A DNA stretch of 64,000 nt from Candidatus Omnitrophota bacterium (GTDB lineage Bacteria > Omnitrophota > Gorgyraeia > Tantalellales > Tantalellaceae), in NCBI GenBank assembly GCA_035403965.1, contig DAONGE010000001.1, positions 85,008-149,007 on the forward strand, read 5' to 3'. The position numbers were made by a program, and so were the translations under genes. Below the pieces are notes generated by a model. It saw nothing but the letters and a program-made list of their open reading frames with translations. It made no database searches and was not told the origin of the DNA. How positions within the stretch are numbered: the stretch's first letter is position 1; each line of letters begins with the position of its first letter. Of the stretch, positions 5,979 to 61,975 are shown piece by piece.

Positions 5979-6012
5979 CTATCTTCTTGGCAACTAAAAA
6001 GAAAGGAATATC

Positions 6013-6294
6013 GTGAAGAAAGCTAAAGCAAGGCATATTTTAGTGTCATCCGCGGAGAAATGCGAAGAACTCAAAAAAAGGATAACCTCCGGTGAGGATT
6101 TCGCGAAGGTAGCGAAAGAATGTTCATTATGTCCGTCCGGGAGGACCGGCGGCGATCTGGGCGAATTCTGCCAGGGCGATATGGTGCCTGAGTTCGATAA
6201 AGTTGTATTCAGCGCCGAAATAGGCAAGGTCCACGGCCCCGTTAAAACCGATTTCGGGTATCACCTTATTGAGGTCACAAAACGGGTGGATTAA
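6013..6294 (+). CDS. ppiC: parvulin-type peptidyl-prolyl cis-trans isomerase (PpiC/Par10-like)
   Basis: 93-aa single rotamase domain. ARHILV...GGDLGEF...GYHLIEV are hallmark parvulin motifs. GTG start with a good ribosome-binding site. Confidence 0.75.
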   Translation: MKKAKARHILVSSAEKCEELKKRITSGEDFAKVAKECSLCPSGRTGGDLGEFCQGDMVPEFDKVVFSAEIGKVHGPVKTDFGYHLIEVTKRVD

Positions 6295-6480
6295 GCCGTA
6301 GCGGAGAGCGAAACTATCGGTGAAAAGGTGGTTTATCCGCGTATGAAAGATGCTGACTTTGAACATAGAATTTGGTAATATTATAGCGCTTTATGAGAGG
6401 GGTATTGAATTAAGACCTCTCACCCCTTCAAGGGGTTCGAGGTCCGCTTTTCTTAGTAGAGATTTTATATGTGGAAAAGC

Positions 6481-6570
6481 GGAGGAGTGGCAGAGCGGTC
6501 GATTGCGGCGGTCTTGAAAACCGTTGACCTCGCAAGAGGTCCGTGGGTTCGAATCCTACCTCCTCCGCCA
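6481..6570 (+). tRNA. tRNA-Ser (anticodon TGA)
   Basis: Acceptor stem GGAGGAG/CTCCTCC, discriminator G and an encoded CCA. D-arm GCAGAGCGG. Anticodon stem-loop GCGGT-CTTGAAA-ACCGT places TGA at positions 34-36. The long variable arm (TGACCTCGCAAGAGGTCC) is typical of Ser. T-arm GTGGGTTCGAATCCTAC. Confidence 0.85.
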
Positions 6571-7010
6571 TGAAATGCACAAAAGCGGGAGAAAACTATG
6601 TTTTCTCCCGCTTTTTTTGCATTTCATTCAAACATTGCTTCCATACATATTTTAAACGGGCAATGTTTGCGCCATTCGCTCGCAGCGGTTTTGAAAAGGA
6701 ATTTCAAAACCGCTTTTCACACTCATGCCGGGCGGAGGAGGCAGGGCACCTTCGCTCACCTTGTTCGCTTCGGGGTCCTATCTCCTCCGCCAGAAAAATG
6801 CAAAGGGCGGGTTAAGAATAAATTCTTCCCCGCCCTATTTGCATTTTTCTTAAAACATTGCCTGCCGTTTTGCCACTCGTTGCAATGTTTTGGCATCCGC
6901 TCTTTCGGTTTTTATGAATAAATTCCTAAAAACCTCATTCGCTTCTGCCGGCGGTGTCGGTAGGGCACCTTCGCTCACCTTGTTCGCTTCGGGGTCCTAC
7001 CTCATTCGCC
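6571..7010 (+). repeat. two tandem degenerate ~220-bp units, each ending in a direct repeat of the tRNA-Ser 3' end (att-like)
   Basis: The tRNA 3' end tcctacctcctccgcca (6554-6570) recurs as tcctatctcctccgcca (6776-6792) and tcctacctcattcgcca (6994-7010). A 45-nt block agggcaccttcgctcaccttgttcgcttcggggtcc precedes both copies. Each unit starts with a GC hairpin plus T-run. Confidence 0.6.
6585..6618 (+). terminator. rho-independent terminator after tRNA-Ser
   Basis: Perfect 12-bp stem GCGGGAGAAAAC / GTTTTCTCCCGC with a 2-4-nt loop, followed by TTTTTTT. Confidence 0.65.
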
Positions 7011-7271
7011 AGTTTTATTATGCAATGGGGTATCATTTTAAAGAGATACCCTTTATTATTTCAATAAACAATATCCATCTGTGAGAATACCGTGGAATAA
7101 CCCATTTCTTAACGTAATATGCTTGATACATACTGAAAAACGAGTATTATATATCATTATAATTCCCAGAGATGTCGGTTTGTCTAAAGACCAGTAGATT
7201 AAACTTATTATGGACGAAGTCGTTCATGACCGCGGTAATTAAGCTTTTGCCGCAGAAGGAAGATAATAATT

Positions 7272-8150
7272 ATGAGCGGAGAGCCGATCCATTTAAAAAA
7301 TACGGCGTTAGCTATAACCGAGCGATGCACCCTCAGGTGTAAATTGTGTTTCGCCTATATACCGTACCATGATAACCCGCAGGATATTACTATTGATGTG
7401 CTCGACACGATTTTACGGCGATATTTTTCTATTGTATCAAGCGTGGATCATTTTTGTGTAACGGGAGGGGAGCCATTAGTGCATCCGCATTTGTGCGCTA
7501 TTTTAAATATGATAAACGGGTATTCGGGACAGATAAACAAAACGATAGACATTATAACCAATGGGACATTGGACATTAAGGATGATGTACTCGGATTTTT
7601 GAAGCAGAACAAAGATAAAACACGTGTTATTATCAGTGACTACGGCAAATATTCTCCTAAAACAAAGACTTTAGAGGAACGATTGCGTTCTTCGGGGATA
7701 ATTGTCAGGATAGAAAGATATGCCGCGGATGATCCGCTTTATGGCGGATGGATAGATTGCAGGGATCATTCTTTGAAACACTTTACGCAGGAAGAAATTG
7801 ACAGACAAGGGAAACACTGTTATTTCAAAAATAAAAGAGGGTATACTATCCGTAAAGGGGAATTGCATAACTGCGGACGGTCATATTGGCGAATGCTGAA
7901 GAATATTATTCCGCGCAATCCGGAGGAATATCTGAATTTGCTGGATATGGAGACGCCGATCGAACATCAGCGCGAAATATTGAGAAAATTGCATAAAAAG
8001 GACAGTGTAACCAGTTGCGCGTATTGTTGGGGAGCGAATGCCCGGAGTAAGAGATATAAGCCGGCCGAACAACTTCCGGCCAAAGTTAATAGATGGTCGA
8101 TAAAATACATAAGAGATCGGTTTTTTTCAAAGTGGCTTAGAACCTGGTAA
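7272..8150 (+). CDS. radical SAM protein, small paralog A (CxxxCxxC near the N-terminus, C-terminal Cys cluster)
   Basis: ITERCTLRCKLC gives the canonical CxxxCxxC motif. GGEPLVHP is the glycine-rich SAM motif. A TNGTL motif is present. Four further Cys are conserved with paralog C (HCYF, HNCGR, SCAYCWGA). A ribosome-binding site AAGGAAG precedes the start. Confidence 0.7.
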   Translation: MSGEPIHLKNTALAITERCTLRCKLCFAYIPYHDNPQDITIDVLDTILRRYFSIVSSVDHFCVTGGEPLVHPHLCAILNMINGYSGQINKTIDIITNGTLDIKDDVLGFLKQNKDKTRVIISDYGKYSPKTKTLEERLRSSGIIVRIERYAADDPLYGGWIDCRDHSLKHFTQEEIDRQGKHCYFKNKRGYTIRKGELHNCGRSYWRMLKNIIPRNPEEYLNLLDMETPIEHQREILRKLHKKDSVTSCAYCWGANARSKRYKPAEQLPAKVNRWSIKYIRDRFFSKWLRTW

Positions 8151-8170
8151 AAAAGGCGAAAAGAGGAAGC

Positions 8171-8836
8171 ATGACAGACGGGCCCTTGCGTTTTAAACAT
8201 ATGGCATTGTGTATAACCGAGCGGTGTACGTTAAAATGTAAACTATGCCATGCGCATATACCGTATCATGATGATCCGCGCGACATGACGCTTGATGAGG
8301 TCGAAACCGTCCTTCATAGGCTTTTTTCGATAATAGAAAGTGTGGACGCTTTTGACATAGCGGGCGGGGAACCTTTGCTTCATCCGGACTTAGCCACTAT
8401 ATTAAAAATCGTTGATAAATATTCCAACCAAATAAACAGGACCATCGATATCACTACTAACGGCACGTTAGAAATGACGGATGAAACCGTTGATTTTTTC
8501 AGGGCCAGAAAAGACCGGACCCGCGTGATAATCAGCGATTACGGCAAATATTCCCCTAAAGCCAGACTATTAGCCGAAAAATTGAGTTCGTTGGGGATAA
8601 ATGTCCGGGTTGACCGTCACTACGGCGATTCCCCGATCTATGGCGGGTGGATAGATGACCGGGATCTTTCGTTGAAATTTTTTACACAACGCGAGATAGA
8701 TGAACACGGAAAAAATTGCTTTTATCGGGAGAAAGGGTGGCCCATAAGGAAAGGCGAGTTGCATAATTGTTCAAGGGGCTACTGGCGAATGCTTAAAAAA
8801 GTTATTCCGCGTAATCCTGTTCGCGGGGTTCAATGA
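8171..8836 (+). CDS. radical SAM protein, small paralog B (C-terminally truncated relative to A and C)
   Basis: ITERCTLKCKLC and GGEPLLHP are present. It is collinear with A and C up to IPRNP, then stops. It lacks the ~55-aa tail that carries the SCAYCxGA pair. It may be a decaying copy. Confidence 0.6.
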   Translation: MTDGPLRFKHMALCITERCTLKCKLCHAHIPYHDDPRDMTLDEVETVLHRLFSIIESVDAFDIAGGEPLLHPDLATILKIVDKYSNQINRTIDITTNGTLEMTDETVDFFRARKDRTRVIISDYGKYSPKARLLAEKLSSLGINVRVDRHYGDSPIYGGWIDDRDLSLKFFTQREIDEHGKNCFYREKGWPIRKGELHNCSRGYWRMLKKVIPRNPVRGVQ

Positions 8837-8879
8837 TAGTGAGATAGGTGTTTAATATCATACTTAAATTTGGGATAGA

Positions 8880-9557
8880 ATGAAGAACAATTCGGTTAAA
8901 TTCGGGTTTTATACGTCAAATCGGGCCACGCGGCTTCGCAAATTTCTTTCAGGCCCGCTTCGCGGGAACTCGATTATTGGAATGGTTTTGCATGACGGGA
9001 TCCCGTCCGATGAGCTTAAAAACTTATGTGATCAGAACGGGATAGACCTTATGGCCGTTGATTACGTTGAGCTTGGTGTTGACAAGAGCCGCCGTAATAA
9101 ATATTTGTCTGATGTTTTATTAGAGCAGCTTGTCGCCCGGGGAGTAGATTATTGTTTTTGTTTTGGGTCATGTATACTGGTCGGGGATCTGTTGCGGGTT
9201 TTTCGTAACAGGATCATCAATTTCCATCCTTCGCTGTTACCGGCGTTCCCCGGCATAAAAGCGGTCGATCAGGCTATTGAATACGGGGCGCGATTTCTGG
9301 GGAATACAGCCCATTTTATAGATGAAGGAGTGGATACCGGGCCCATAATAATGCAGTCCATTATTTCGGCGGAAGCGTTCAGTGGGTATGATTCGGTGCT
9401 TGACCAGCAGTTGCTCATGTTGGCCCAGATCATTAAGTGGTTGGAACAAGGACGGATCGAAGTTAGCGGGAGAAAAGTAAATGTACGCGATGCCGTTTGT
9501 GATGATTTGACCTTTATGCCTAATGTCGAGCCCGATTTGTTACAAAAATTATTGTAG
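8880..9557 (+). CDS. formyltransferase-domain protein (sugar N-formyltransferase-like)
   Basis: INFHPSLLPAFPGIKA and FIDEGVDTGPIIMQ match the catalytic N..H..D signature of the Formyl_trans_N family (PurN/Fmt/ArnA-like). The 225-aa size and glycan-cluster context suggest a sugar formyltransferase. Confidence 0.65.
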   Translation: MKNNSVKFGFYTSNRATRLRKFLSGPLRGNSIIGMVLHDGIPSDELKNLCDQNGIDLMAVDYVELGVDKSRRNKYLSDVLLEQLVARGVDYCFCFGSCILVGDLLRVFRNRIINFHPSLLPAFPGIKAVDQAIEYGARFLGNTAHFIDEGVDTGPIIMQSIISAEAFSGYDSVLDQQLLMLAQIIKWLEQGRIEVSGRKVNVRDAVCDDLTFMPNVEPDLLQKLL

Positions 9558-9603
9558 TCGGGGTAGATCAGACTGACGATGTGTTTTTAGGAGGAACAGA
9601 GAG

Positions 9604-10917
9604 ATGCGGATATTGCTTACCGGACTGATGACAGTGCACTGGGGGAGGCTGGAGAACGGGAATATCGGGAATTACTATATAACCGAAGCCACAATAAGGG
9701 AATTGCACAGGGTTTTTCCGGGAGCCGAGATCGTCACGACCTTTCAAATGTCTGATGAATTCAGCCGCCGGGAAAAAATAAAAGTTTTGCCGATGGATAT
9801 ATTCTATTCATGGAACGAATCGGATCTTGATACATGTTTTAAGGAAATGGGTATCGCCGGGGTCTTTAATTTAGCCGGACACCTGATCGCCTCAACGCCG
9901 TATATCGACGAGGTCATGAAAAGCGACCTTGTTCTGGATTTTAGCGGGGAGATGTGGGGGGATCACGCCGAACCGGTCGGAAAAGACAGGTTTCTGACGG
10001 TTTTAATGAAGGACAGGGTGGCGCAACTTTTAAAAAAACCGGTGGTGCTATTAGCCGGTTCGCAGGGGCCGTTCGATAAAACGGCACATTTGAAGGAGTT
10101 TGCTTCGGCCGTCATAAGTGATTATAAAGCTATTTTGAACAGAGAACCGTCATCGGTCAATGTGCTGAAAGAAAACGGGTTTGATATTAAGAACGTTAAA
10201 AGCTTTACGGATGTGTCTTTTCTTTTTGAGCCCGCGCCTTATGAAGAGATCAAAGAGATCTTAAGGAAGGATTCCATAGTGGCTACGGATAAAAAAACCG
10301 CGGGTTTTATCCTGTGCGGATTCAATATGTTAAGGGGGCCGTATGACGCGGAGCCACGCTCCGACGACGAATTTACGCAGTTCGCGGAGGCGGTGGAGTT
10401 TATAACGGGGGAACTGGGCGCCAGGGTGTTTTTAATGTCGCATCAGAACGGGTTTGTAAAGACCCCGGAATTTAAACTTATCAACGGAAGGGATTATCCT
10501 TACGCGCGGCAATTGTACGATGTCGTGAAAAAAAGGGGGAAAGTGAATATCAGTGACGTGATCCTTGCCAAAGGGCCGTATACGCCTAAGCAGACGATGG
10601 CTATCATCGGCCAGTTCGACATCTTTGTCACGGGCAGGATACACGCGTTTGTGGCAGCGGTTTCGCAAAAAGTCCCGACGGTTATCATCAATAGGGGGCA
10701 TGGGGGAAGGGCGCATCGGAATATAGGGTTTGCGCGAAGCGTCGGCATGGAGGACTATATCGCCGATCCGGCGTCCGCGGACGACTTAAAAACTAGGATC
10801 AAAAAATGCTGGAATAACAGGGAAAAAATAAAAGAGGAATTAAAAAACAGGATCCCGATAGTGAAAGATACCGCCAAAACGATGTTTGATGTTTTAAAAG
10901 AGGCGGTCAGGGTATAG
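9604..10917 (+). CDS. polysaccharide pyruvyl transferase family protein (CsaB/WcaK-like)
   Basis: N-terminal GN.G(N/D) motif (ENGNIGNYYI) and C-terminal TGRIHAFVAAVSQKVPTVII, which resembles the conserved TRLH...G.P motif of pyruvyl transferases. Strong ribosome-binding site AGGAGG. Confidence 0.5.
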   Translation: MRILLTGLMTVHWGRLENGNIGNYYITEATIRELHRVFPGAEIVTTFQMSDEFSRREKIKVLPMDIFYSWNESDLDTCFKEMGIAGVFNLAGHLIASTPYIDEVMKSDLVLDFSGEMWGDHAEPVGKDRFLTVLMKDRVAQLLKKPVVLLAGSQGPFDKTAHLKEFASAVISDYKAILNREPSSVNVLKENGFDIKNVKSFTDVSFLFEPAPYEEIKEILRKDSIVATDKKTAGFILCGFNMLRGPYDAEPRSDDEFTQFAEAVEFITGELGARVFLMSHQNGFVKTPEFKLINGRDYPYARQLYDVVKKRGKVNISDVILAKGPYTPKQTMAIIGQFDIFVTGRIHAFVAAVSQKVPTVIINRGHGGRAHRNIGFARSVGMEDYIADPASADDLKTRIKKCWNNREKIKEELKNRIPIVKDTAKTMFDVLKEAVRV

Positions 10918-10921
10918 AGAT

Positions 10922-11632
10922 ATGAAGATCGCCATTATGCAGCCGTATTTTTTTCCGTATCTGGGATATTTTAGTTTGATAAAACATACGGATCGGTTCA
11001 TCTTGCTGGATGAGGTTCAGTATATTCGTCACGGATGGATCGACAGGAACAGGATACTTAAACCTGGAGGAGGATGGCAGTATATCAAAGTTCCCGTAAG
11101 AAAGCACGCACGGGATACAAGTATCAAAAATATCAGGATCAATAATGATCTCGACTGGAGAACTAAAATGCTGGGGCAATTGCAGCATTATAAAAAGAAT
11201 GCTCCGAATTTCGCCCGGGTGGAAAAGATAATGGAAAAGGTATTGGTGAGTGAATATGATTCTATCGTTCAGCTAAATCTCGCCGGGCTTAAGGCGATCT
11301 GCGAATATTTAAAAATATATCCGGTTTTACAAATATTTTCCGAAGAGAGGTTTGCCATAGACCCCCCTAATGAACCGGATGAATGGGCGTTGAATATATG
11401 CAAAGCGATACCCGGCGTGAAAGAGTATTGGAATCCTCCCGGGGCACGGGATCTGTTCGATAGAAAAAAATATCGCTCCGGCTCGATAGAACTTAGGTTT
11501 CTCGAAAATCGTTTGCGCCGGTATGACCAAAAACGAACGGTTTTTGAGCCGGGTTTATCTATTATAGATGTTTTGATGTTCAATGACCCGGATCATGTAA
11601 ACTTAATGTTGGACGATTTTGTCCTTGATTGA
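10922..11632 (+). CDS. WbqC-like family protein (O-antigen/glycan cluster accessory protein)
   Basis: N-terminus MKIAIMQPYFFPYLGYFSLI...FILLDEVQY...DRNRIL...VPV matches the hallmark WbqC-like family N-terminal signature. Confidence 0.6.
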   Translation: MKIAIMQPYFFPYLGYFSLIKHTDRFILLDEVQYIRHGWIDRNRILKPGGGWQYIKVPVRKHARDTSIKNIRINNDLDWRTKMLGQLQHYKKNAPNFARVEKIMEKVLVSEYDSIVQLNLAGLKAICEYLKIYPVLQIFSEERFAIDPPNEPDEWALNICKAIPGVKEYWNPPGARDLFDRKKYRSGSIELRFLENRLRRYDQKRTVFEPGLSIIDVLMFNDPDHVNLMLDDFVLD

Positions 11633-11688
11633 CGCCGGGATTATTTTAATAATAGCAAGCGGGATAAATTGGAAAAGGTGGAGTAGCT

Positions 11689-12492
11689 ATGGGCATGATA
11701 CAATTGCAACGATCCGCGATAGCCGTAACGCAGCGTTGTACTTTAAGATGCAAGTTGTGTAACGCGTATATGCCGTATTATGTTAAACCGGCGGATATGC
11801 TTTTTGACAAGATAGAAAAAGTCCTGGATAGGTATTTTTTAATCGTGGACAAAGTGGGCATATTCGGCGTGCTGGGAGGGGAACCGTTGTTGCATCCGGA
11901 TATAGCGAAGATCCTGAAAAAAATAAATTCGTATACCGATCAAATTTCCGAACGGATAGATCTGGTGACCAATGGTACGCTGGACATGGATGATGAGACA
12001 TTCGCTTTTTTTGTCGATAACGCGCCAAAGGCCAAGGTCATTATCAGCCACTATGGCAAGCATTCCCCGAAAGCCGATATCCTCGCTAAAAAACTCGAAG
12101 CCCATGGCGCGAATTACAGGGTAGCCGTCTATCACGGAGAGGATCTGTTGTACGGCGGGTGGATAGATTATAGGGATCATTCAAAAAAACATTTTACTCA
12201 GGAGGACATTGATCGGCAGGGGCGGAATTGCATTGTAAGGAAAGGGCAGTATTATCTGATCAGCGAAGGCGAAATGCATACCTGCACAAGGGCGCACTGG
12301 CGCATGCGGCAGGGGATAATTCCCCGTAATGCGGACGAATATTTGAATCTGCTCGACGATACTATATCCGTGGAAAAACAAAGGGAGATTTTGAGCAGGA
12401 TAGACAGCCGGGTTAGCATGACATCTTGTGCTTATTGCGAAGGCGCAAGTAATGAAAGCAAGCGATATCAACCCGCAGAGCAGTTAAAATAA
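11689..12492 (+). CDS. radical SAM protein, small paralog C
   Basis: VTQRCTLRCKLCNAYMPYY (CxxxCxxC), GGEPLLHP and TNGTL are present. The C-terminal Cys (NCIV, HTCTR, SCAYCEGA) and the final KRYQPAEQL are shared with paralog A. Confidence 0.7.
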   Translation: MGMIQLQRSAIAVTQRCTLRCKLCNAYMPYYVKPADMLFDKIEKVLDRYFLIVDKVGIFGVLGGEPLLHPDIAKILKKINSYTDQISERIDLVTNGTLDMDDETFAFFVDNAPKAKVIISHYGKHSPKADILAKKLEAHGANYRVAVYHGEDLLYGGWIDYRDHSKKHFTQEDIDRQGRNCIVRKGQYYLISEGEMHTCTRAHWRMRQGIIPRNADEYLNLLDDTISVEKQREILSRIDSRVSMTSCAYCEGASNESKRYQPAEQLK

Positions 12493-33242: not shown

Positions 33243-34628
33243 GTGCTAAAATCCATATCAACAAAGGTTATGTTTATTCTGAGAATGAAGTATCGAACGA
33301 AAGAGATAACTGATTGCAATATGGGAACCGAAAAGAACGAAAAAATAGAATTTAATGAGGATTTCAGCGCGGCGTTTGCCGAAATGGAATATACGAAAAA
33401 CCACGTTTTTGTCACCGGCAAGGCCGGTACCGGAAAATCCACGCTATTGAGGTTCTTTAAAGAAAATACAAAAAAGAAAGTGGTTGTTCTTGCGCCCACC
33501 GGGGTTGCCGCTGTCAACATCGATGGACAGACTATTCATTCTTTTTTCGGCTTCCCGCCGAAATACATAGATGTCAGAAGCGTCCGTAAGGTTCGAGGGA
33601 GAAATCTCATGGAAAAATTAGACGCTGTCGTGATAGACGAGGTGTCTATGGTAAGAGCGGATCTTATGGATGGGATAGATCAGGCGCTGCGGGTTAACAG
33701 GGACGAGCCCGGTAAAAAATTCGGCGGTGCACAGATGATATTTTTCGGGGATCTTTATCAGCTTTCACCCGTTATAGACAGGGAATCACGGGAGCTTATG
33801 GAGGAACAGTACAAAAGCCCGTATTTTTTCAGCGCCGATGTGTTCAAAGGATTATCGTTACGTTTTTTTGAGCTTCAGAAAGTGTACAGACAGTCCGATA
33901 AAAAATTTATTGAAATGCTTAATAGATTCAGGGATAACGGTAATACAAAAGAGGATATCGAGCGGCTTAATGAAAGGGTAGACCGGACCGCGGATGACAG
34001 GAAAGATGGAACGGTCATTCTTACGGCCACGAACAGCGTCGCCGGGGCGATAAACGCGAAAAGGCTTTCTGAAATAAAAAGCGAACAGTTTGAGTATAAA
34101 GCCACCGTTACCGGTGAGTTTGAAGAAAAATCTTATCCTACCGAATCGTCTCTTATGCTTAAAAAAGGCGCGCAAGTGATGCTCATCCGGAATGACCCCG
34201 GGAAAAGATGGGTGAATGGGACTATAGCGGAAATAACGGCATTGACCGAGCGATCTATTGAGGTGAACATTAATGGCGAGAAATATGAAGTATCACCTGT
34301 GATATGGAACAAAATAAGATATGTTTATAACCGTCTTGAGGATAAAGTGGATGAGGAGATCGTCGGAACGTTCTCGCAATATCCTATAAAACTTGCCTGG
34401 GCCATCACTATTCATAAAAGTCAGGGGCAGACATTCGATAAGGTGATCATAGAATTGGGCAAAGGCGCGTTCGCGCACGGACAGGTATATGTGGCTCTTA
34501 GCAGATGTACGGCGCTTCAGGGGATCACTTTGAAACGTCCCATACTTCGGGAAGATGTGATCTTCGATCAGCGGATACATTATTTTCAAAAGGGGCTTTT
34601 GGGAGAGATAGTAAGGGAGGAAATATAG
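33243..34628 (+). CDS. PIF1/RecD-like superfamily 1 DNA helicase
   Basis: Walker A GKAGTGKST, Walker B VVIDEVSM, and the C-terminal IHKSQGQTF...VALSRC motifs are typical of the Pif1/RecD family. The true start may be ATG 33321. Confidence 0.7.
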   Translation: MLKSISTKVMFILRMKYRTKEITDCNMGTEKNEKIEFNEDFSAAFAEMEYTKNHVFVTGKAGTGKSTLLRFFKENTKKKVVVLAPTGVAAVNIDGQTIHSFFGFPPKYIDVRSVRKVRGRNLMEKLDAVVIDEVSMVRADLMDGIDQALRVNRDEPGKKFGGAQMIFFGDLYQLSPVIDRESRELMEEQYKSPYFFSADVFKGLSLRFFELQKVYRQSDKKFIEMLNRFRDNGNTKEDIERLNERVDRTADDRKDGTVILTATNSVAGAINAKRLSEIKSEQFEYKATVTGEFEEKSYPTESSLMLKKGAQVMLIRNDPGKRWVNGTIAEITALTERSIEVNINGEKYEVSPVIWNKIRYVYNRLEDKVDEEIVGTFSQYPIKLAWAITIHKSQGQTFDKVIIELGKGAFAHGQVYVALSRCTALQGITLKRPILREDVIFDQRIHYFQKGLLGEIVREEI

Positions 34629-34672
34629 GTTGTAGGGTCGAGGGTGAAGGGGGTAGGGCAGGGTGGAGGGTT

Positions 34673-35095
34673 ATGAGATTTAGTGTAAGCATGGAAAAAG
34701 AAGAGGCGTTGAAAAAAAAGATGGATTCTCTCGGGATCAAGGAAAACGATATCGAGGAAAAATTCATTCTTTCAGGCGGCAAAGGCGGGCAACATGTGAA
34801 CAAGACGTCGTCCTGTGTTTATTTAAAGCATGGCCCTACGGGTATCGAAGTGAAATGCCAAAAAGACCGCTCGCAGTCTTTGAACCGTTTTCTGGCGCGG
34901 AGGATGCTCGCCGAAAAAATAGAATCCATGGTACTTGGAAGAGCGTCTGAGGAACGGCGAGCGATAGAGAAGATCAGGCGCCAAAAAAGGAAAAGATCGA
35001 AACGGGCAAAAGAAAAAATGCTCAGGGATAAAAAAATAAATTCCGAAAAGAAAGAACTCCGTCAGTTCGATGTGTCTGAGACGGATGTCGAGTAA
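34673..35095 (+). CDS. arfB: ArfB-like GGQ-domain peptidyl-tRNA hydrolase (alternative ribosome rescue factor)
   Basis: GGKGGQHVNKTSS is the GGQ motif. The size is ~140 aa, and a Lys/Arg-rich C-terminal tail is present as in ArfB/YaeJ. ATG 34673 is preferred because the upstream 34505 start would overlap the helicase gene. Confidence 0.65.
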   Translation: MRFSVSMEKEEALKKKMDSLGIKENDIEEKFILSGGKGGQHVNKTSSCVYLKHGPTGIEVKCQKDRSQSLNRFLARRMLAEKIESMVLGRASEERRAIEKIRRQKRKRSKRAKEKMLRDKKINSEKKELRQFDVSETDVE

Positions 35096-41089: not shown

Positions 41090-41560
41090 GAGAGCTTCAT
41101 TCGGAGAATTTTCTGACAATTTTGGCGCCGAGGAACAGTCCCTCCCATGATGTTTCCGGACCTGCCTGTTCGGAAGTTCTGCGCGCTTTAGAAAAATACC
41201 CTGTTATTTTTGATCTCCAGGCGTTTGATGCTTCGCTGAAGCGTAAAATAATTTTATCTTTTGCGGGTATTTTTCTTAAGTGCTCGAACATTCCGAATAG
41301 GCGGATCGACGGGAAAACGTTTTTAAGGTTTAGTATGGGGTGAATCCGTGAATGACGCGCGACATCTAAGAGATAGAAAGTATATATTTTGTAGAGATTG
41401 CTTCCTCCTGCGCCAAATTACTTCATACTATTTGGCTTCGGAGGACGTCCCCACAACGGTTGGTGCCCGATAGAAACATTCGGAATGAAATAGGGCGAGC
41501 GTCCACGGTAGAAAGAACACAAACTTCTCCGAAAAAGGAAATCGCCTAGGACAGAACGTC
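41090..41560. repeat. mosaic intergenic repeat locus 2
   Basis: cggagaattttctgacaattttggcgc (41102-41128) and gcctgttcggaagttctgcgcgcttt (41165-41190). A ~105-bp block at 41190-41295 is near-identical to 56907-57010. caaattacttcatactatttggcttcggagga (41416-41446) and agaaagaacacaaacttctc (41508-41528). ORF 41068-41343 is spurious. Confidence 0.6.
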
Positions 41561-58153: not shown

Positions 58154-58332
58154 AAATACAGGGTGGTCACAGTATAGCGCATAGTTTGAATTGTTAACGG
58201 CGGAATGATGGAAAAACTGAAGAATTGTTTGTTGAATCCCGTGTTTACGTGTAAGATAATCTGCGGACTTTGTGTAGTAAAATTCGGATAGACGCGTGCA
58301 TGGTAAAACAAAATAAGAGGGAAAAGGACTAT

Positions 58333-60096
58333 ATGAAAAAAATAACCGTGGCTTTGATCTTCTTTTTTCTGGCGAATGTAATTTATTTTACTACCGGGAG
58401 CGTTACTGCGTATGCGGTGGATGAATCAAATTCACGCGATGCGGCTACTGCGAAAACTACGCTTAAGAGATCAGCGATGGCGGCGGAAGCGCTGAAGCAT
58501 TTGGGAGATACTGAGAAGTATGATCCGAGTGCCGCGTACCAGGGAACAGGTGGTAAAGCGGCAGCAGATAAAGCGGCAGCAGATAAAGCGGCAGCAGATA
58601 AAGCGGCAGCAGGTGAATCAAGTATATCCGAGTTTGCCAAGATGAAGAAAGCGGAGGCGGCGGCAGTGAAAAAGCAGATTGAAAACTATAGTAAAAGAGA
58701 GGATACGATTGATTACGGTGCAAACTTGACTCAGGCGAATTCCTCGGCACTTAAAAGGCCGACGGGTGCAACCTTTAGAGACAAGTATAAAGACTATACC
58801 GCCGAGACCCAAGATAAAGGGGAAAAGGCCTCCCAAGCGGGCTTTTATGAGGGAACAAAACAAGGATCCGGTTACAGTAAGCCAAAGACAGAGGCTTCCA
58901 AAACACAGATAATGCTAAACAATGTGGGTAAAGCACCTGAGGCGGCGCAGGAGAGAAATTTGACAGACGCGAAACAATTGATCGTTGGAAACGCCACAGC
59001 GGGAAAAACGGCAGCGGATAAAGCAGCAGCAGATAAGGCAGCAGCGGAAAAAGCGGCAGCTGAAAAAGCCGCTGCTCAGAAGGCAGCCACTGACGCAAAA
59101 GCTCTAGCGGCGGAAAAACAGGCTGCGGCGGAAAAAGCCGCGGTTTTGGCGGCAAAAGCCGCCGCTGACGCAAAATCTGCCACCGTGATAAGGGAACATG
59201 CGGATAGAAGATTAAGCGGAACAAAAAGTGCAGTCGAAAAGGCGAAAAAAGAAGGGATTCCTTCGGGTACACAAAATACCATGGACGATGTTGTGAAAGT
59301 AAGAGAGAAATACAAACAGGAAAAGTCTACAGAAGAGAACGCGGCGAAAAAAGCCGCAGAAGACGCGGCAAAAGCGGCGGAAGCAGCTGAAAAAGAGGCA
59401 AGGGAAGCGGCGGAAAAAGCCGCGGAATTAGAGAAAGCCGCCGGAATATCGTCGGGGGATAAAACGGTAAGTCAGGCTGAAGAAGAAGCCAAAAAAGCAA
59501 AAAATTCCGTCGCCGCTGCGAAAAAGGCGCTAGAAAAAGCGATAGAAAAAGTAAAAACAAATAAAGCGGACGCCGAGACAAACTCGCTTGAAATAGAAGC
59601 AGCGAAAAAGACAGCGGATGATTTTGAAAAAAGGGCGGAAGATTATGCCAGAGAGGCGCAAAGGCTGAAAGAAGAAGCTGAAAAGAAAAAAGGAACTAGT
59701 GATGAAGCAGCTGCTAAACGGCGAGCAGATCTGGCAGCACAGGAAGCGGATAGAGTAGCTAAAGAAACTGCCGGACCGAAACAAAAGGTGAAAGATCATA
59801 TGGTCAAAGCCGCATCCTTGGACCGCGCGATAAAATCAGCGGAAGAAGAAATAGAAAAAGCGGCAAAGGCTTTATCAGCTGCGAAAGCCGCAGCGGCGGC
59901 GGCGGATAGGGCGGTAGCTGACGCCACCGAGCGCGAAAAAGCGACATCGAAAAATAACGATAAGGGGGAAAATCAATCCGCTAATAACGATCTAAAGTCT
60001 CTGAAAGATGACATGGCGAATGATAACGAGATATTGGATACAAAAGATATACAGGCGCAAAAACAGGCACAAAACGAGATAAGTCCGTCACGATAA
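58333..60096 (+). CDS. secreted Ala/Lys/Glu-rich low-complexity protein (predicted long alpha-helical; TolA-domain-II-like composition) with the conserved C-terminal tail
   Basis: Ribosome-binding site GAGGGAAAAGG precedes ATG 58333. Signal peptide MKKITVALIFFFLANVIYFTTGSVTAYA. Contains (AADKA)n and EKAAKEAAE repeats. It ends DDMANDNEILDTKDIQAQKQAQNEISPSR. The ORF track's upstream start at 58270 was rejected. Confidence 0.6.
   Translation: MKKITVALIFFFLANVIYFTTGSVTAYAVDESNSRDAATAKTTLKRSAMAAEALKHLGDTEKYDPSAAYQGTGGKAAADKAAADKAAADKAAAGESSISEFAKMKKAEAAAVKKQIENYSKREDTIDYGANLTQANSSALKRPTGATFRDKYKDYTAETQDKGEKASQAGFYEGTKQGSGYSKPKTEASKTQIMLNNVGKAPEAAQERNLTDAKQLIVGNATAGKTAADKAAADKAAAEKAAAEKAAAQKAATDAKALAAEKQAAAEKAAVLAAKAAADAKSATVIREHADRRLSGTKSAVEKAKKEGIPSGTQNTMDDVVKVREKYKQEKSTEENAAKKAAEDAAKAAEAAEKEAREAAEKAAELEKAAGISSGDKTVSQAEEEAKKAKNSVAAAKKALEKAIEKVKTNKADAETNSLEIEAAKKTADDFEKRAEDYAREAQRLKEEAEKKKGTSDEAAAKRRADLAAQEADRVAKETAGPKQKVKDHMVKAASLDRAIKSAEEEIEKAAKALSAAKAAAAAADRAVADATEREKATSKNNDKGENQSANNDLKSLKDDMANDNEILDTKDIQAQKQAQNEISPSR
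58556..58611 (+). repeat. tandem 15-nt coding repeat (aaagcggcagcagat x ~3.7) encoding (AADKA)n
   Basis: Direct inspection. Similar imperfect 15-nt arrays lie at 59010-59060 and 60913-61003. Confidence 0.7.
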
Positions 60097-60241
60097 AGGA
60101 TATGGTTTTAAAAGACGAGGGAACGAATAATTATACGTTTTAATTTTGATATGCGGAATAATGTGTGGTACTGTTGTAAAGATATTCTGACGGAAAGGAA
60201 GCGGTGAAGATGAATCTTTGCAACAACAATTTGAGGAGCTT

Positions 60242-61975
60242 ATGAAAAAACTTACCATTAGCATTGCCTGTTTTTTTCTGATGAACATTATATGTTGTAC
60301 GGCTTCGGATGTCAGTGTGGCCGATGAATCAAAAAATATAATCACTCCGGGGAATTCTAACTTGACAACAGGATCAGGGACAGGCGCGGCATCAAAAGAC
60401 GAGACAAAAAAAGGAGCTTCTGGCGCAAATGTTCGCGCGGGTGCAGGCGCAGGTGGATCCGCAGCTGCTGGACTAACAAGTGGAAAGCTTGCAGGCATTT
60501 CCAGTGGAGTAGCCGCAGTAGCTGCTGGAATAGCCGCAGCGTCTGGAGCCGGAGGAGGTGGTGGAGTAGTACCATCATCAGGAGCAGGTGCGAAATCAAC
60601 CGCTGCAGCGGATAAAGCGGTAATAGCCGCAGCCGCAGCAGCAGTAACAGTATCAGATCAAGCGGCAACGTATAAAGCAGCAGCGGGTGTATCTGATCAA
60701 AACGATGGGGCTACTACGAAAACTACGTCTCAGAAATCAGCGGCGGCGGAGGCAGCACTGAATCAGCTGAAAAATTTTGGTAAAGATAAGAAAAAATATG
60801 ATCCAGGTGCCGCCTTGACTAAGGCGGATTCCTCGGCAATAAAAAATGCGTTGGGTTCAACTGATGCGAAACAACAAGCCTTTAGTACCAAGTACCAGCA
60901 ACCAGGTGAGAAGTCGGCAGCAGAAAAAGCAGCAGCGGATAAAGCGGCGGCAGATAAGGCAGCAGCAGATAAAGCCGCGGCAGATAAAGCAGCCGCAGAG
61001 AAGTATTCAGCCGCGGAAAAAGCCGTAGTAGAGAAGGCTAAAGCTTCTGTCGCGTTAACCGCGGCGGAAAAGGCGCAAGCCGAGGCGGAAAGCGAATTGA
61101 AGAAATTGGAAAGTATGGACTCCGCAACGCGATTTCTACTCTTTGGTGTAGCTAGGGAGGGGGATCAAAAATATAAGGGAGCTCTAAAAGAAGCGGAAGC
61201 GAAAGTTGCCGCGGCAAAAGAGGCGACAGAGAAAGCTGAAAAGACGGCAGAGGAAACTAAAGAAGCGGCGGATAAAGCTGAAAAAGAGGCGATAGACGCC
61301 GCTAAAGCGGTAAAAGCCCTTACAGTCGGGGCTACAGGAGAAAAAACAGCGACGGAAAAAGCGGCAGCGGCGGAAAAAGCGAAAAAGGAAGTTAGCGAAG
61401 CAAAAGACAATGTTAAGGCGACGGAAAAAGCCGCCGCTTTGGCGGTAGAAAAAGCAGCCGAAGCCGTGGCAAAAATAAAAGCGAATAAAAAAGCGGCGGA
61501 AGAAGCCAAGTTAGCGGCAGAACAAAAGACAAACGATGCAAAGGAAATAGCAAGAAAGTTAGAGGCGGCAAAAGAAGTTAAGGAAAAAGAAAATAAAAGA
61601 GGGAACACCAATCGTGCAACCGATCTGGTGATCACAAGGAATACAGCATCCCTTGAAGAGTATAAAGCAGAAGCAAAAAAATTCCAGCAGGAAGAGGCTG
61701 ATAGGTTAGCGGAGATAAAAAAATTAGAAGCAGAGGCAAAATTAGCTGAAGAAGAAGCCGAAAAAGCGGCATTAGCGGCATTGTCGGCAAGAAAGGTGTT
61801 AGCTGACAAATCATATGAGGCAGAAAGAGCGGAAGAAGCCGCGAAAGGTACGTCAAGTAAAACAGGTTCGGCGGATAAAGACCTAAAGTCTTTGGAAGAA
61901 GACATGGCGAATGATAACGAGATATTGGATACAAAAGATATACAGGCACAAAAAGAGATAAGTCCGTCACGATAA
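60242..61975 (+). CDS. secreted Gly/Ala-rich then Ala/Lys/Glu-rich low-complexity protein, paralog of 58333-60096, with the conserved C-terminal tail
   Basis: Ribosome-binding site GAGGAG precedes ATG 60242. Signal peptide MKKLTISIACFFLMNIICCTAS. Shares KKYDP.AA and (AADKA)n with the upstream paralog. It ends EEDMANDNEILDTKDIQAQKEISPSR. Confidence 0.6.
   Translation: MKKLTISIACFFLMNIICCTASDVSVADESKNIITPGNSNLTTGSGTGAASKDETKKGASGANVRAGAGAGGSAAAGLTSGKLAGISSGVAAVAAGIAAASGAGGGGGVVPSSGAGAKSTAAADKAVIAAAAAAVTVSDQAATYKAAAGVSDQNDGATTKTTSQKSAAAEAALNQLKNFGKDKKKYDPGAALTKADSSAIKNALGSTDAKQQAFSTKYQQPGEKSAAEKAAADKAAADKAAADKAAADKAAAEKYSAAEKAVVEKAKASVALTAAEKAQAEAESELKKLESMDSATRFLLFGVAREGDQKYKGALKEAEAKVAAAKEATEKAEKTAEETKEAADKAEKEAIDAAKAVKALTVGATGEKTATEKAAAAEKAKKEVSEAKDNVKATEKAAALAVEKAAEAVAKIKANKKAAEEAKLAAEQKTNDAKEIARKLEAAKEVKEKENKRGNTNRATDLVITRNTASLEEYKAEAKKFQQEEADRLAEIKKLEAEAKLAEEEAEKAALAALSARKVLADKSYEAERAEEAAKGTSSKTGSADKDLKSLEEDMANDNEILDTKDIQAQKEISPSR

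Follow-up and report, generated by a model that had tools for sequence, protein, structure and literature searches.

A tRNA-Ser(UGA) gene followed by two tandem units that end in copies of the tRNA 3' end in Omnitrophota: an RtT-like array or a putative att relic

Two phenomena in which the 3' end of a transfer RNA (tRNA) gene is repeated are in the textbooks but are usually kept separate, namely the tRNA 3'-end repeats left by integrases and the unexplained repeats behind the tyrT gene of Escherichia coli. The first belongs to a general phenomenon, in which tRNA fragments are the footprints of integration (PMC9897764). The second yields a small RNA (sRNA), rttR, according to the statement in PMC3318445 that cites Bosl and Kersten 1991. 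In E. coli K-12 (NC_000913.3), on which our comparison was made, three 178-nt units of 95% mutual identity lie behind tyrT and tyrV, and the spacer between tyrT and tyrV is a fourth unit (66%). Each unit ends in the terminal 19-mer of tRNA-Tyr, AATCCTTCCCCCACCACCA, and its 5' segment (GGGGAAGGAT...) pairs with this copy of the tRNA end, which is the closing helix of the Rfam RtT consensus; the annotated rttR sRNA is one such unit, extending from 8 nt after the CCA of tyrV to the unit's own CCA. Here we describe a related arrangement in a 64,000-nt stretch of DNA (the window) from Candidatus Omnitrophota bacterium (assembly GCA_035403965.1, contig DAONGE010000001.1, positions 85,008 to 149,007 of the forward strand), where a tRNA-Ser(UGA) gene is followed by two diverged tandem units that each end in a copy of its 3' end. 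By their sequence these units, which would be either RtT-like or a relic of attachment (att) sites, are new for Omnitrophota, and they occur there as two diverged copies in one lineage; to our knowledge, no tRNA-tail-terminated tandem units have been described in this phylum. The array joins the two phenomena, since both have in common a breakpoint in the T loop, units that end in CCA and a helix that closes onto the tRNA tail. The tyrT/RtT-like anatomy is now seen in a distant uncultured phylum, and the same 17-nt core in a candidate phage attachment site (attP). Should such arrays turn out to be widespread, the origin of RtT-like RNAs would be accounted for, and annotators would gain a recognizable class of gene-less tRNA-tail repeats that ought not to be annotated as island boundaries.

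The tRNA-Ser(UGA) gene (6481-6570, CCA encoded) is the sole tRNA gene found by ARAGORN in the window and matches Rfam RF00005 with 54.8 bits; it and all the features below lie on the plus strand unless stated otherwise. Its acceptor stem (GGAGGAG/CTCCTCC), T stem (GTGGG/CCTAC), T loop (TTCGAAT) and discriminator G were assigned from the Rfam alignment, as was the position of the reference 17-mer TCCTACCTCCTCCGCCA at the 3' end of the gene (6554-6570). This block consists of the final T-loop base, the 3' strands of the T stem and the acceptor stem, G73 and CCA (T60 to A76). The first-pass annotation, made from the letters of the sequence, had reported that the block recurs twice downstream, and it does so as direct copies at 6776-6792 with one mismatch (16/17) and at 6995-7011 with two (15/17), the latter 1 nt away from the 6994-7010 given before. 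Moreover, an inverted copy with three mismatches lies at 6730-6746. The three direct 17-mers are spaced by 222 and 219 nt, which is far over chance, and at up to three mismatches six occurrences were found in the whole window against 0.19 expected. Past 7011 the window holds only matches with three mismatches, at 41399 (+) and 52024 (-), which are in the chance range. Among 47 tRNA genes in about 1 Mb examined, only tyrT, tyrV and this tRNA-Ser gene have their own terminal 17-mer copied downstream.

Each downstream copy closes a unit of about 220 bp, as had also been proposed. Unit 1 (6571-6792, 222 nt) and unit 2 (6793-7011, 219 nt) have the same layout of four near-perfect palindromic hairpins (H1 to H4) at conserved positions of the predicted folds, with minimum free energies of -99.5 kcal/mol (z = -9.4) and -83.0 kcal/mol (z = -7.85), respectively. 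They are homologous over their full length (local alignment score 115, against a mean of 17 and a maximum of 43 for shuffled sequences) with an overall identity of about 70%, and the words TTTGCATTT and AAACATTGC occur in both, which agrees with the shared blocks listed earlier. Sequence comparison shows that a 38-nt core within H4, which holds the hexamer TTCGCT twice, is 100% identical between 6743-6780 and 6962-6999 and sits in a 63-nt stretch at 89% identity (6731-6793 versus 6950-7012); the near-identical segment of 45 nt reported before was approximately right in length and coordinates. The remaining parts of the units are 39-90% identical, and the background around the core is at roughly 60-67%. 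Between successive 17-mers there are about 205 bp, twice, with no credible open reading frame (ORF). Since independent metagenome assemblies (L001, L002 and L079) give the array locus with 100% identity, it is real and not an assembly artefact. The organism occurs in digester samples (JGI 3300009694, 3300025858 and 3300025867; SRR4236661; SRR5007244; ERZ795026).

H1 begins on the A of the preceding CCA. In unit 1 it is a 58-nt palindrome (6570-6627, from inverted repeats and the terminator scan), whose core of 16 pairs (6581-6615) stands with its T-run directly after the CCA of the tRNA and passes the terminator scan. In unit 2 it is an inverted repeat of 59 nt (6792-6850) in which five pairs have changed in a compensatory manner compared with unit 1; here the T tail after GGGCGGG (6805-6811) and CCCGCCC (6829-6835) is interrupted and the terminator scan is failed, so that the opening by a GC hairpin plus T-run, which had been ascribed to both units, holds for unit 1 but not fully for unit 2. 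The other three hairpins were likewise delimited as inverted repeats, except for H4 of unit 2, which was recognized as a direct repeat of H4 in unit 1. H2 consists of CAAACATTGC, an AT-rich loop of 21 nt and GCAATGTTTG in unit 1 (6629-6669), and of AAAACATTGC, a loop of 20 nt and GCAATGTTTT in unit 2 (6852-6891), with one compensatory pair at the base; its 10-bp stems are 90% conserved between the units and its loops 39%. H3 is a perfect 13-bp palindrome in unit 1 (AGCGGTTTTGAAA / TTTCAAAACCGCT, 6684-6714), and has the arms GGTTTTTATGAAT / ATTCCTAAAAACC in unit 2 (6907-6934); although both arms have undergone substitutions and indels, the palindrome persists in each unit.

H4 contains the copy of the tRNA 3' end. 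In unit 1 (6731-6792) it reads GGC, GGAGGAG, GCAGG, a 31-nt loop, CCTAT, CTCCTCC and GCCA, with inverted repeat arms of 20 nt that are 80% complementary, and in unit 2 (6950-7011) it reads GGC, GGTGTCG, GTAGG, the same 31-nt loop, CCTAC, CTCATTC and GCCA. The 5' arm, which corresponds to the 5' strands of the acceptor and T stems, thus pairs with the copy of the tRNA 3' end around an expanded "T loop" of 31 nt, and H4 is predicted to be a minihelix of the tRNA-Ser acceptor/T arm with an enlarged loop, ending in GCCA. There is a gradient of decay along the array: unit 1 keeps 16 of the 17 nucleotides and all 7 bp of the acceptor-like helix, and unit 2 keeps 15 of the 17 nucleotides and three of the seven pairs. 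Just past the last 17-mer, an inverted repeat (GGGTATC..GATACCC, 7028-7051) with a T-rich tail may be the original or a third terminator; it shows no significant homology to H1. The possibility of a third unit (7012-7230) was considered and rejected, because the alignment scores are no better than those of shuffled sequences and this terminator-like hairpin alone remains. In addition, the hexamer TTCGCT is found six times in the array against 0.16 expected, and the motif ACCT[CT]NT[TC]CGC has five sites in the window, all within 6554-7011, a count that is descriptive only, as the motif was composed after the sites were seen. The exact 11-mer ACCTCATTCGC is present twice, at 6932 and 6999. The pattern of the motif and the 11-mer suggests, at the level of sequence, a nested partial re-duplication of the tRNA end.

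A coding function of the units was rejected, since the ORF frames and the start codons differ between unit 1 and unit 2; upstream of the single start inspected by eye (ATG at 6725), nothing resembling a Shine-Dalgarno sequence was seen. In L079 a 150-aa 'protein' (P0233) has been called over the tRNA and unit 1 (6469-6921 of the window), with the TGA at 6571-6573 read as Trp; it is a gene-calling artefact and not a gene.

Is there evidence that the 17-nt block is used by integrases? The exact 17-mer was scanned against IMG/VR and gave eight matches, five of which are full tRNA-Ser genes in phage tRNA arrays and two of which lie in GC-rich coding sequence, probably by chance. The remaining one, in UViG_3300037067_017970 (3300037067_017970, here L088), is in AT-rich intergenic, non-tRNA sequence on the minus strand (2818-2834), 383 bp upstream of a gene for a tyrosine integrase (PF00589, 1262-2434). 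It is flanked by the direct repeat GTGTTTTAAG twice on one side and by TTTTGT-type repeats on the other, which have the look of arm-type sites, and its similarity to the tRNA starts at the same base as in units 1 and 2. By its sequence, L088 is thus a candidate phage attP for tRNA-Ser(UGA) with the classical attP layout, and, because it carries the block beside an integrase gene, the block would be a real att core for some integrase. L088 comes from an unrelated AT-rich element and is the one example found. As in CIME-type elements, the array is a segment bounded by att-like direct repeats without recombination genes. Furthermore, two scars of equal size and equal layout that are homologous throughout are better explained by one remnant that was later duplicated than by two serial insertions. 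The first-pass annotation had offered integration/excision scars or a tandem duplicate derived from the tRNA 3' end; repeats of tRNA origin do bound homologous units and an att origin is plausible, but a simple attR scar would not predict the 5' strand and the four palindromes of the units, and serial insertions are the poorer explanation.

Taken together, we assume, with about even confidence, that the array is an att-flanked remnant of a recombination at the T loop/3' end of the tRNA gene, which was duplicated once and then diverged. The recombination would have had its breakpoint at the T loop/3' end of tRNA-Ser and would probably have been mediated by an integrase. The 17-nt block corresponds to the segment which serves as the att identity block for a class of tRNA-targeting tyrosine integrases; between two copies of the 17-mer, about 205 bp of DNA, either foreign or rearranged, would have been left behind. 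This repeat-flanked remnant could then have been doubled once by unequal crossing-over between the flanking repeats, and the two copies would have diverged, the distal one decaying more. At present the array may be little but a stack of hairpins between the tRNA and the glycan operon downstream, with H1 of unit 1 serving as the terminator of the tRNA. In the case of read-through, unit 1, with its 7-bp acceptor helix on a T-like helix and its GCCA end, could be processed into a CCA-ended RNA, which would parallel the release of the rtT RNA from the tyrT repeats of E. coli. We infer, rather than observe, the sequence in which these events took place, the part played by an integrase and any processing by tRNA-maturation enzymes.

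Several points weigh against this explanation. The array is known in just two copies from one species-level lineage, all recovered assemblies of which are 99.8-100% identical at the array (the same species is in GCA_035352475.1). One phage of the L088 kind was found, and two of the three non-tRNA matches to the 17-mer look like chance; the arms of its attP have no similarity to the units past the core, and no relatives of its integrase were found in IMG/VR. An attR scar should hold only the sequence 3' of the crossover, yet H4 carries the 5' strand of the acceptor and T stems, and this strand, with a possible remnant of the anticodon arm, would fit a rearranged duplicate of the tRNA at least as well. 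The identity of 100% in the 38-nt core, against 39-90% in its surroundings, points to selection or gene conversion, which a pure relic does not predict. Pairing in H1 to H3 is kept, in the predicted folds, through changes on both arms, so that these hairpins could have a function. Co-transcription of the rtT kind is disfavoured, as a strong terminator stands between the tRNA and unit 1, and the units have no promoter-like site on the plus strand. The hypotheses on origin and on function are not mutually exclusive, and the E. coli RtT itself may be an exapted relic.

The array could instead have a purely local origin, as scrambled tandem pseudogene duplicates of tRNA-Ser with the flanking terminators and without any mobile element. 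We regard this as possible, though not probable. Unequal crossing-over or template switching would have deleted the D, anticodon and variable arms and expanded the T loop. The order of the parts of H4 is as expected for such a duplicate, i.e. acceptor 5' strand, T-stem 5' strand (GCAGG or GTAGG, compared with GTGGG in the tRNA), loop, T-stem 3' strand, acceptor 3' strand and GCCA; the 5' arm of H4 is, however, equally explained as the plain complement of its 3' arm. Positions 6676-6697 of unit 1 match 18 of the 22 nucleotides of the D/anticodon-arm segment of the tRNA (6499-6520; gapped alignment, p ~0.024), and H3 of unit 1, by its sequence, may be an anticodon arm made palindromic by a 12-nt insertion. 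In unit 2 such a likeness is not significant (431 of 500 shuffles were equal or better), and beyond the 17-mer, which alone is significant in alignments against shuffles, the similarity of the units to tRNA-Ser is weak. That a tRNA plus a unit can be duplicated is seen in E. coli, where the tyrT-tyrV spacer is a diverged RtT unit between intact tRNAs, and the absence of mobile-element genes from the window is also in line with a local origin. On the other hand, the coincidence of the block boundary with the core of the phage attP would then be an accident of roughly 1 in 8.

Functional genes for sRNAs of the RtT type form another alternative, in which the units would be transcribed by read-through or from a promoter of their own and RNase P and 3' trimming would give a stable CCA-ended RNA serving as a tRNA mimic or a regulator. 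The very stable predicted folds (z = -9.4 and -7.9), the kept positions of the hairpins with changes on both arms (eight double-sided changes in RNAalifold pairs, from two sequences) and the invariant 38-nt core of H4 against a background of roughly 60-67% would agree with this. Moreover, as in a tRNA gene, the CCA at the end of each unit has a terminator-like hairpin behind it, and the E. coli analogue gives the rttR sRNA, as is stated in PMC3318445. However, the minus strand folds as well or better (-109.4 versus -99.5 kcal/mol for unit 1 and -87.4 versus -83.0 kcal/mol for unit 2), and because near-perfect palindromes fold alike on both strands, the folds are no sign of a strand-specific RNA; neither G-U pairs nor folding energies gave a strand preference. 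In unit 2 the acceptor helix is destroyed (three of seven pairs). The strong terminator at 6581-6615 precedes unit 1 and argues against efficient read-through, and no sigma-70-like promoter site was found within 6571-7011 on the plus strand. The GGC at the 5' end of H4 pairs with G73-C75 and would occlude a free RCCA tail, which bacterial RNase P normally uses. In addition, no Rfam family but tRNA matched at E <=10. RtT (RF00391) in particular gave no match at this threshold in 6000-7600 and none at its gathering score (45 bits) in the whole window, whereas in the E. coli control it matched four times with 133-137 bits, and for this reason the units are an architectural and not a homologous analogue of RtT. 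We therefore consider functional sRNA genes of this type unlikely. The stronger form of this idea, by analogy with E. coli, that the units are a second, independently evolved set of RtT-type 'tRNA-tagged' RNAs outside the Enterobacteria, relics that were taken over as sRNAs, seems to us slightly less likely still. If it were true, the minihelix and the CCA tail would attract RNase P together with 3'-trimming and CCA enzymes, and possibly also SerRS or the stringent-response machinery; the function would reside in the invariant 38-nt loop, and tRNA-mimic regulators would arise repeatedly from att-type scars at tRNA genes.

It is very improbable, in our judgement, that the units belong to a dispersed family of intergenic repeats (REP-, MITE- or PATE-like palindromes) which lies beside the tRNA by chance. 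Four near-perfect palindromes per unit are typical of repeat elements at the DNA level, but the units are in exact register with the 3' end of the tRNA, with 15 or 16 of 17 nt in common, and the window has no other copy by exact search, at three mismatches or by nhmmer. The H4 loop had zero matches in viral contigs, blastn of the array against phage and plasmid records gave no match, and six-frame pseudo-protein searches among 5.8 billion and 1.8 billion proteins returned only the locus itself (P0233); hence the case that the first-pass annotation had named as fatal to its proposal, a common intergenic repeat unrelated to tRNA genes, did not arise in the window or in the viral, phage/plasmid and protein collections. 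The scan of metagenomes gave one unrelated match. The 24-nt stretch CTTCGCTCACCTTGTTCGCTTCGG of the H4 loop (6747-6770 and 6966-6989) recurs without a difference as the loop of a hairpin, AGATTTCTCC...TCGAAATGACA, in contig L009 (1095-1118, minus strand), an unrelated low-GC metagenome contig of 1.1 kb with several similar palindromic repeats around a small ORF. This is what a repeat family would lead one to expect; the chance estimate for a 23-mer in that collection is well below one.

The units had further been taken to mark the edge of a radical-SAM-rich glycan island that starts at 7272. We found no support for the array as the boundary of a mobile glycan island. The glycan cluster to the right of the tRNA extends from 7272 to about 32.5 kb (~32466), with housekeeping genes beyond, and contains, according to Pfam, radical-SAM enzymes, a formyltransferase, a pyruvyl transferase, WbqC, DegT aminotransferases, glycosyltransferases, an ABC exporter and B12-radical-SAM enzymes; the neighbouring radical-SAM protein is so named by NCBI. 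As in genomic islands, an intact tRNA gene, tRNA-Ser(UGA) at 6481-6570, is at one end. No distal repeat of the tRNA 3' block brackets the cluster, as copies with up to two mismatches are found in the window only at 6776 and 6995. In agreement with the earlier observation that no integrase is present, Pfam scans of the window ORFs of >=150 aa found no integrase, transposase or phage domain; the scans covered those judged to be genes and a few shorter ones, leaving out ORFs inside larger ORFs of the opposite strand. A PIF1-like helicase (33243-34628) is the sole loosely mobile-element-like domain. There is no GC step at 7272, the GC content being 0.39-0.47 throughout and flat over the junction, at 40-47%. 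Moreover, the cassette at 7272-12483 has counterparts of about 70% nucleotide identity in other lineages, where it lies inside larger glycan loci; the homology begins exactly at the ATG, and neither a tRNA nor a unit is nearby. On present evidence, annotation of the glycan cluster as a tRNA-integrated island is not warranted.

The tRNA-Ser locus was also compared with relatives, as had been proposed in order to see whether the island and the repeats are variably present. L070 is the only relative in which a rotamase gene is followed by tRNA-Ser(UGA), and it has neither downstream units nor copies of the 17-mer. In more distant relatives the cassette lies elsewhere, free of a tRNA. In L070 a 42-nt copy of the 5' half of the tRNA (2537-2578), which ends in the anticodon loop (CTTG), lies 105 nt upstream of the intact tRNA (2683-2770) with a hairpin-rich spacer, and because of this partial copy the tRNA-Ser locus appears to be recombination-prone in the group. 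Other probes of synteny were tried and abandoned. With the chorismate-binding protein, the nearest Omnitrophota metagenome-assembled genomes among 185,579 species genomes have 56% amino-acid identity and no tRNA nearby. Rotamase is too conserved to inform, and four relatives have unrelated neighbourhoods. For the radical-SAM neighbour, the homologous cassettes occupy other contexts.

To the left of the tRNA, Pfam assigned a 2-hydroxyacid dehydrogenase, a hydrolase, a chorismate-binding enzyme, a response regulator and a rotamase (6013-6294), the last from the annotation of the identical gene in locus L001. An inverted repeat at 6414-6454, GACCTCTCACCCCTT/AAGGGGTTCGAGGTC followed by CCGCTTTTCTT, is likely the terminator of the rotamase gene. 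On the other side of the array, the promoter scan found a sigma-70-like match (TTGATA-16-TATTAT, 7123-7150) upstream of the first glycan gene (ATG at 7272). Contigs L003, L005, L006 and L007 share one exact start point, 7203, which lies 69 nt before this radical-SAM ATG, and left-hand contigs end at 6354, 6421 and 6517. The breaks at 7203 are either a population variant or a coverage gap, and a shared read set is suspected from the sample identifiers only. A strain polymorphism was downgraded as the cause, since with a shared read set a coverage gap would explain the common start equally well, and an invertible promoter or inverted repeat at 7203 was rejected, because the flanking 17- to 20-mers have no inverted or direct copy in the window. 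The start of contig L008 at 6970 results from the internal 38-nt repeat at k = 31. In a species with a 73%-identical cassette, Logan contigs L077 and L078 start 65 nt upstream of the homologous radical-SAM gene, which may reflect a recurrent junction just upstream of the cassette; the JGI contig L076 reads through this point (about 2424).

Three small radical-SAM paralogues (7272-8150, 8171-8836 and 11689-12492) lie in the initial 5 kb of the glycan cluster, the first two of which are adjacent and about 67% identical in nucleotide sequence; relatives have one or two. At the right end of the cluster (33243-35095), the ORF of the PIF1-like helicase overlaps an ORF with an RF-1 domain (34505-35095) and is preceded by a 170-aa minus-strand ORF without a Pfam match. 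Two adjacent ORFs without Pfam matches (58270-60096 and 60218-61975) both contain 15-nt tandem repeats, and where these repeats lie, at 58-62 kb, the AT skew is strong (about 0.4); the product of the former is rich in Ala, Lys and Glu, with repeats that encode (AADKA)n, and the latter is followed by genes for a beta-barrel porin and for polysaccharide export.

Compared with the att repeats of tyrosine-integrase elements, those of the array are likewise direct segments of a tRNA 3' end through the CCA, beside an intact tRNA gene. They differ in that they are only about 205 bp apart with no gene between them, in that 64 kb are without an integrase, and in that the units also hold the complementary 5' strand and conserved palindromes; moreover, the two 'scars' are homologous throughout and the adjacent glycan cluster is unbracketed. 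H4 of unit 1 resembles a tRNA minihelix in its 7-bp acceptor helix, which is identical to that of tRNA-Ser and joined to a T-stem-like helix, and in its GCCA end. Unlike a tRNA minihelix, H4 has a 31-nt loop with a short stem of its own in place of the 7-nt T loop, a helix junction that contains one mismatch and one wobble pair, and three extra pairs that sequester G73-C75; the version in unit 2 is degenerate.

From the RtT repeats of E. coli the array differs in several respects. The tRNA is Ser and not Tyr, and the host belongs to Omnitrophota and not to Enterobacteria; there are two units of about 70% identity here and three of 95% in E. coli; the enlarged loop is 31 nt and not ~95 nt, and the helix extends over G73-C75. 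The units here start with a hairpin like an intrinsic terminator, which makes co-transcription doubtful, and have no tpr-like ORF. The likeness is one of plan: a tRNA gene followed by head-to-tail units of about 180-220 nt, each of which ends in the 3' block of that tRNA with its CCA (19 nt in E. coli, 17 nt here). In both, it is within the T loop that the likeness to the tRNA sets in, directly behind GGTTCG in E. coli and behind GGTTCGAA in the array, at positions 2 nt apart, and remnants of the acceptor/T-stem 5' strands form a closing helix with the copy of the tRNA end around an enlarged 'T loop'. By analogy of architecture, the closest known analogue of the array is thus the 178-bp RtT repeats distal to tyrT of E. 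coli.

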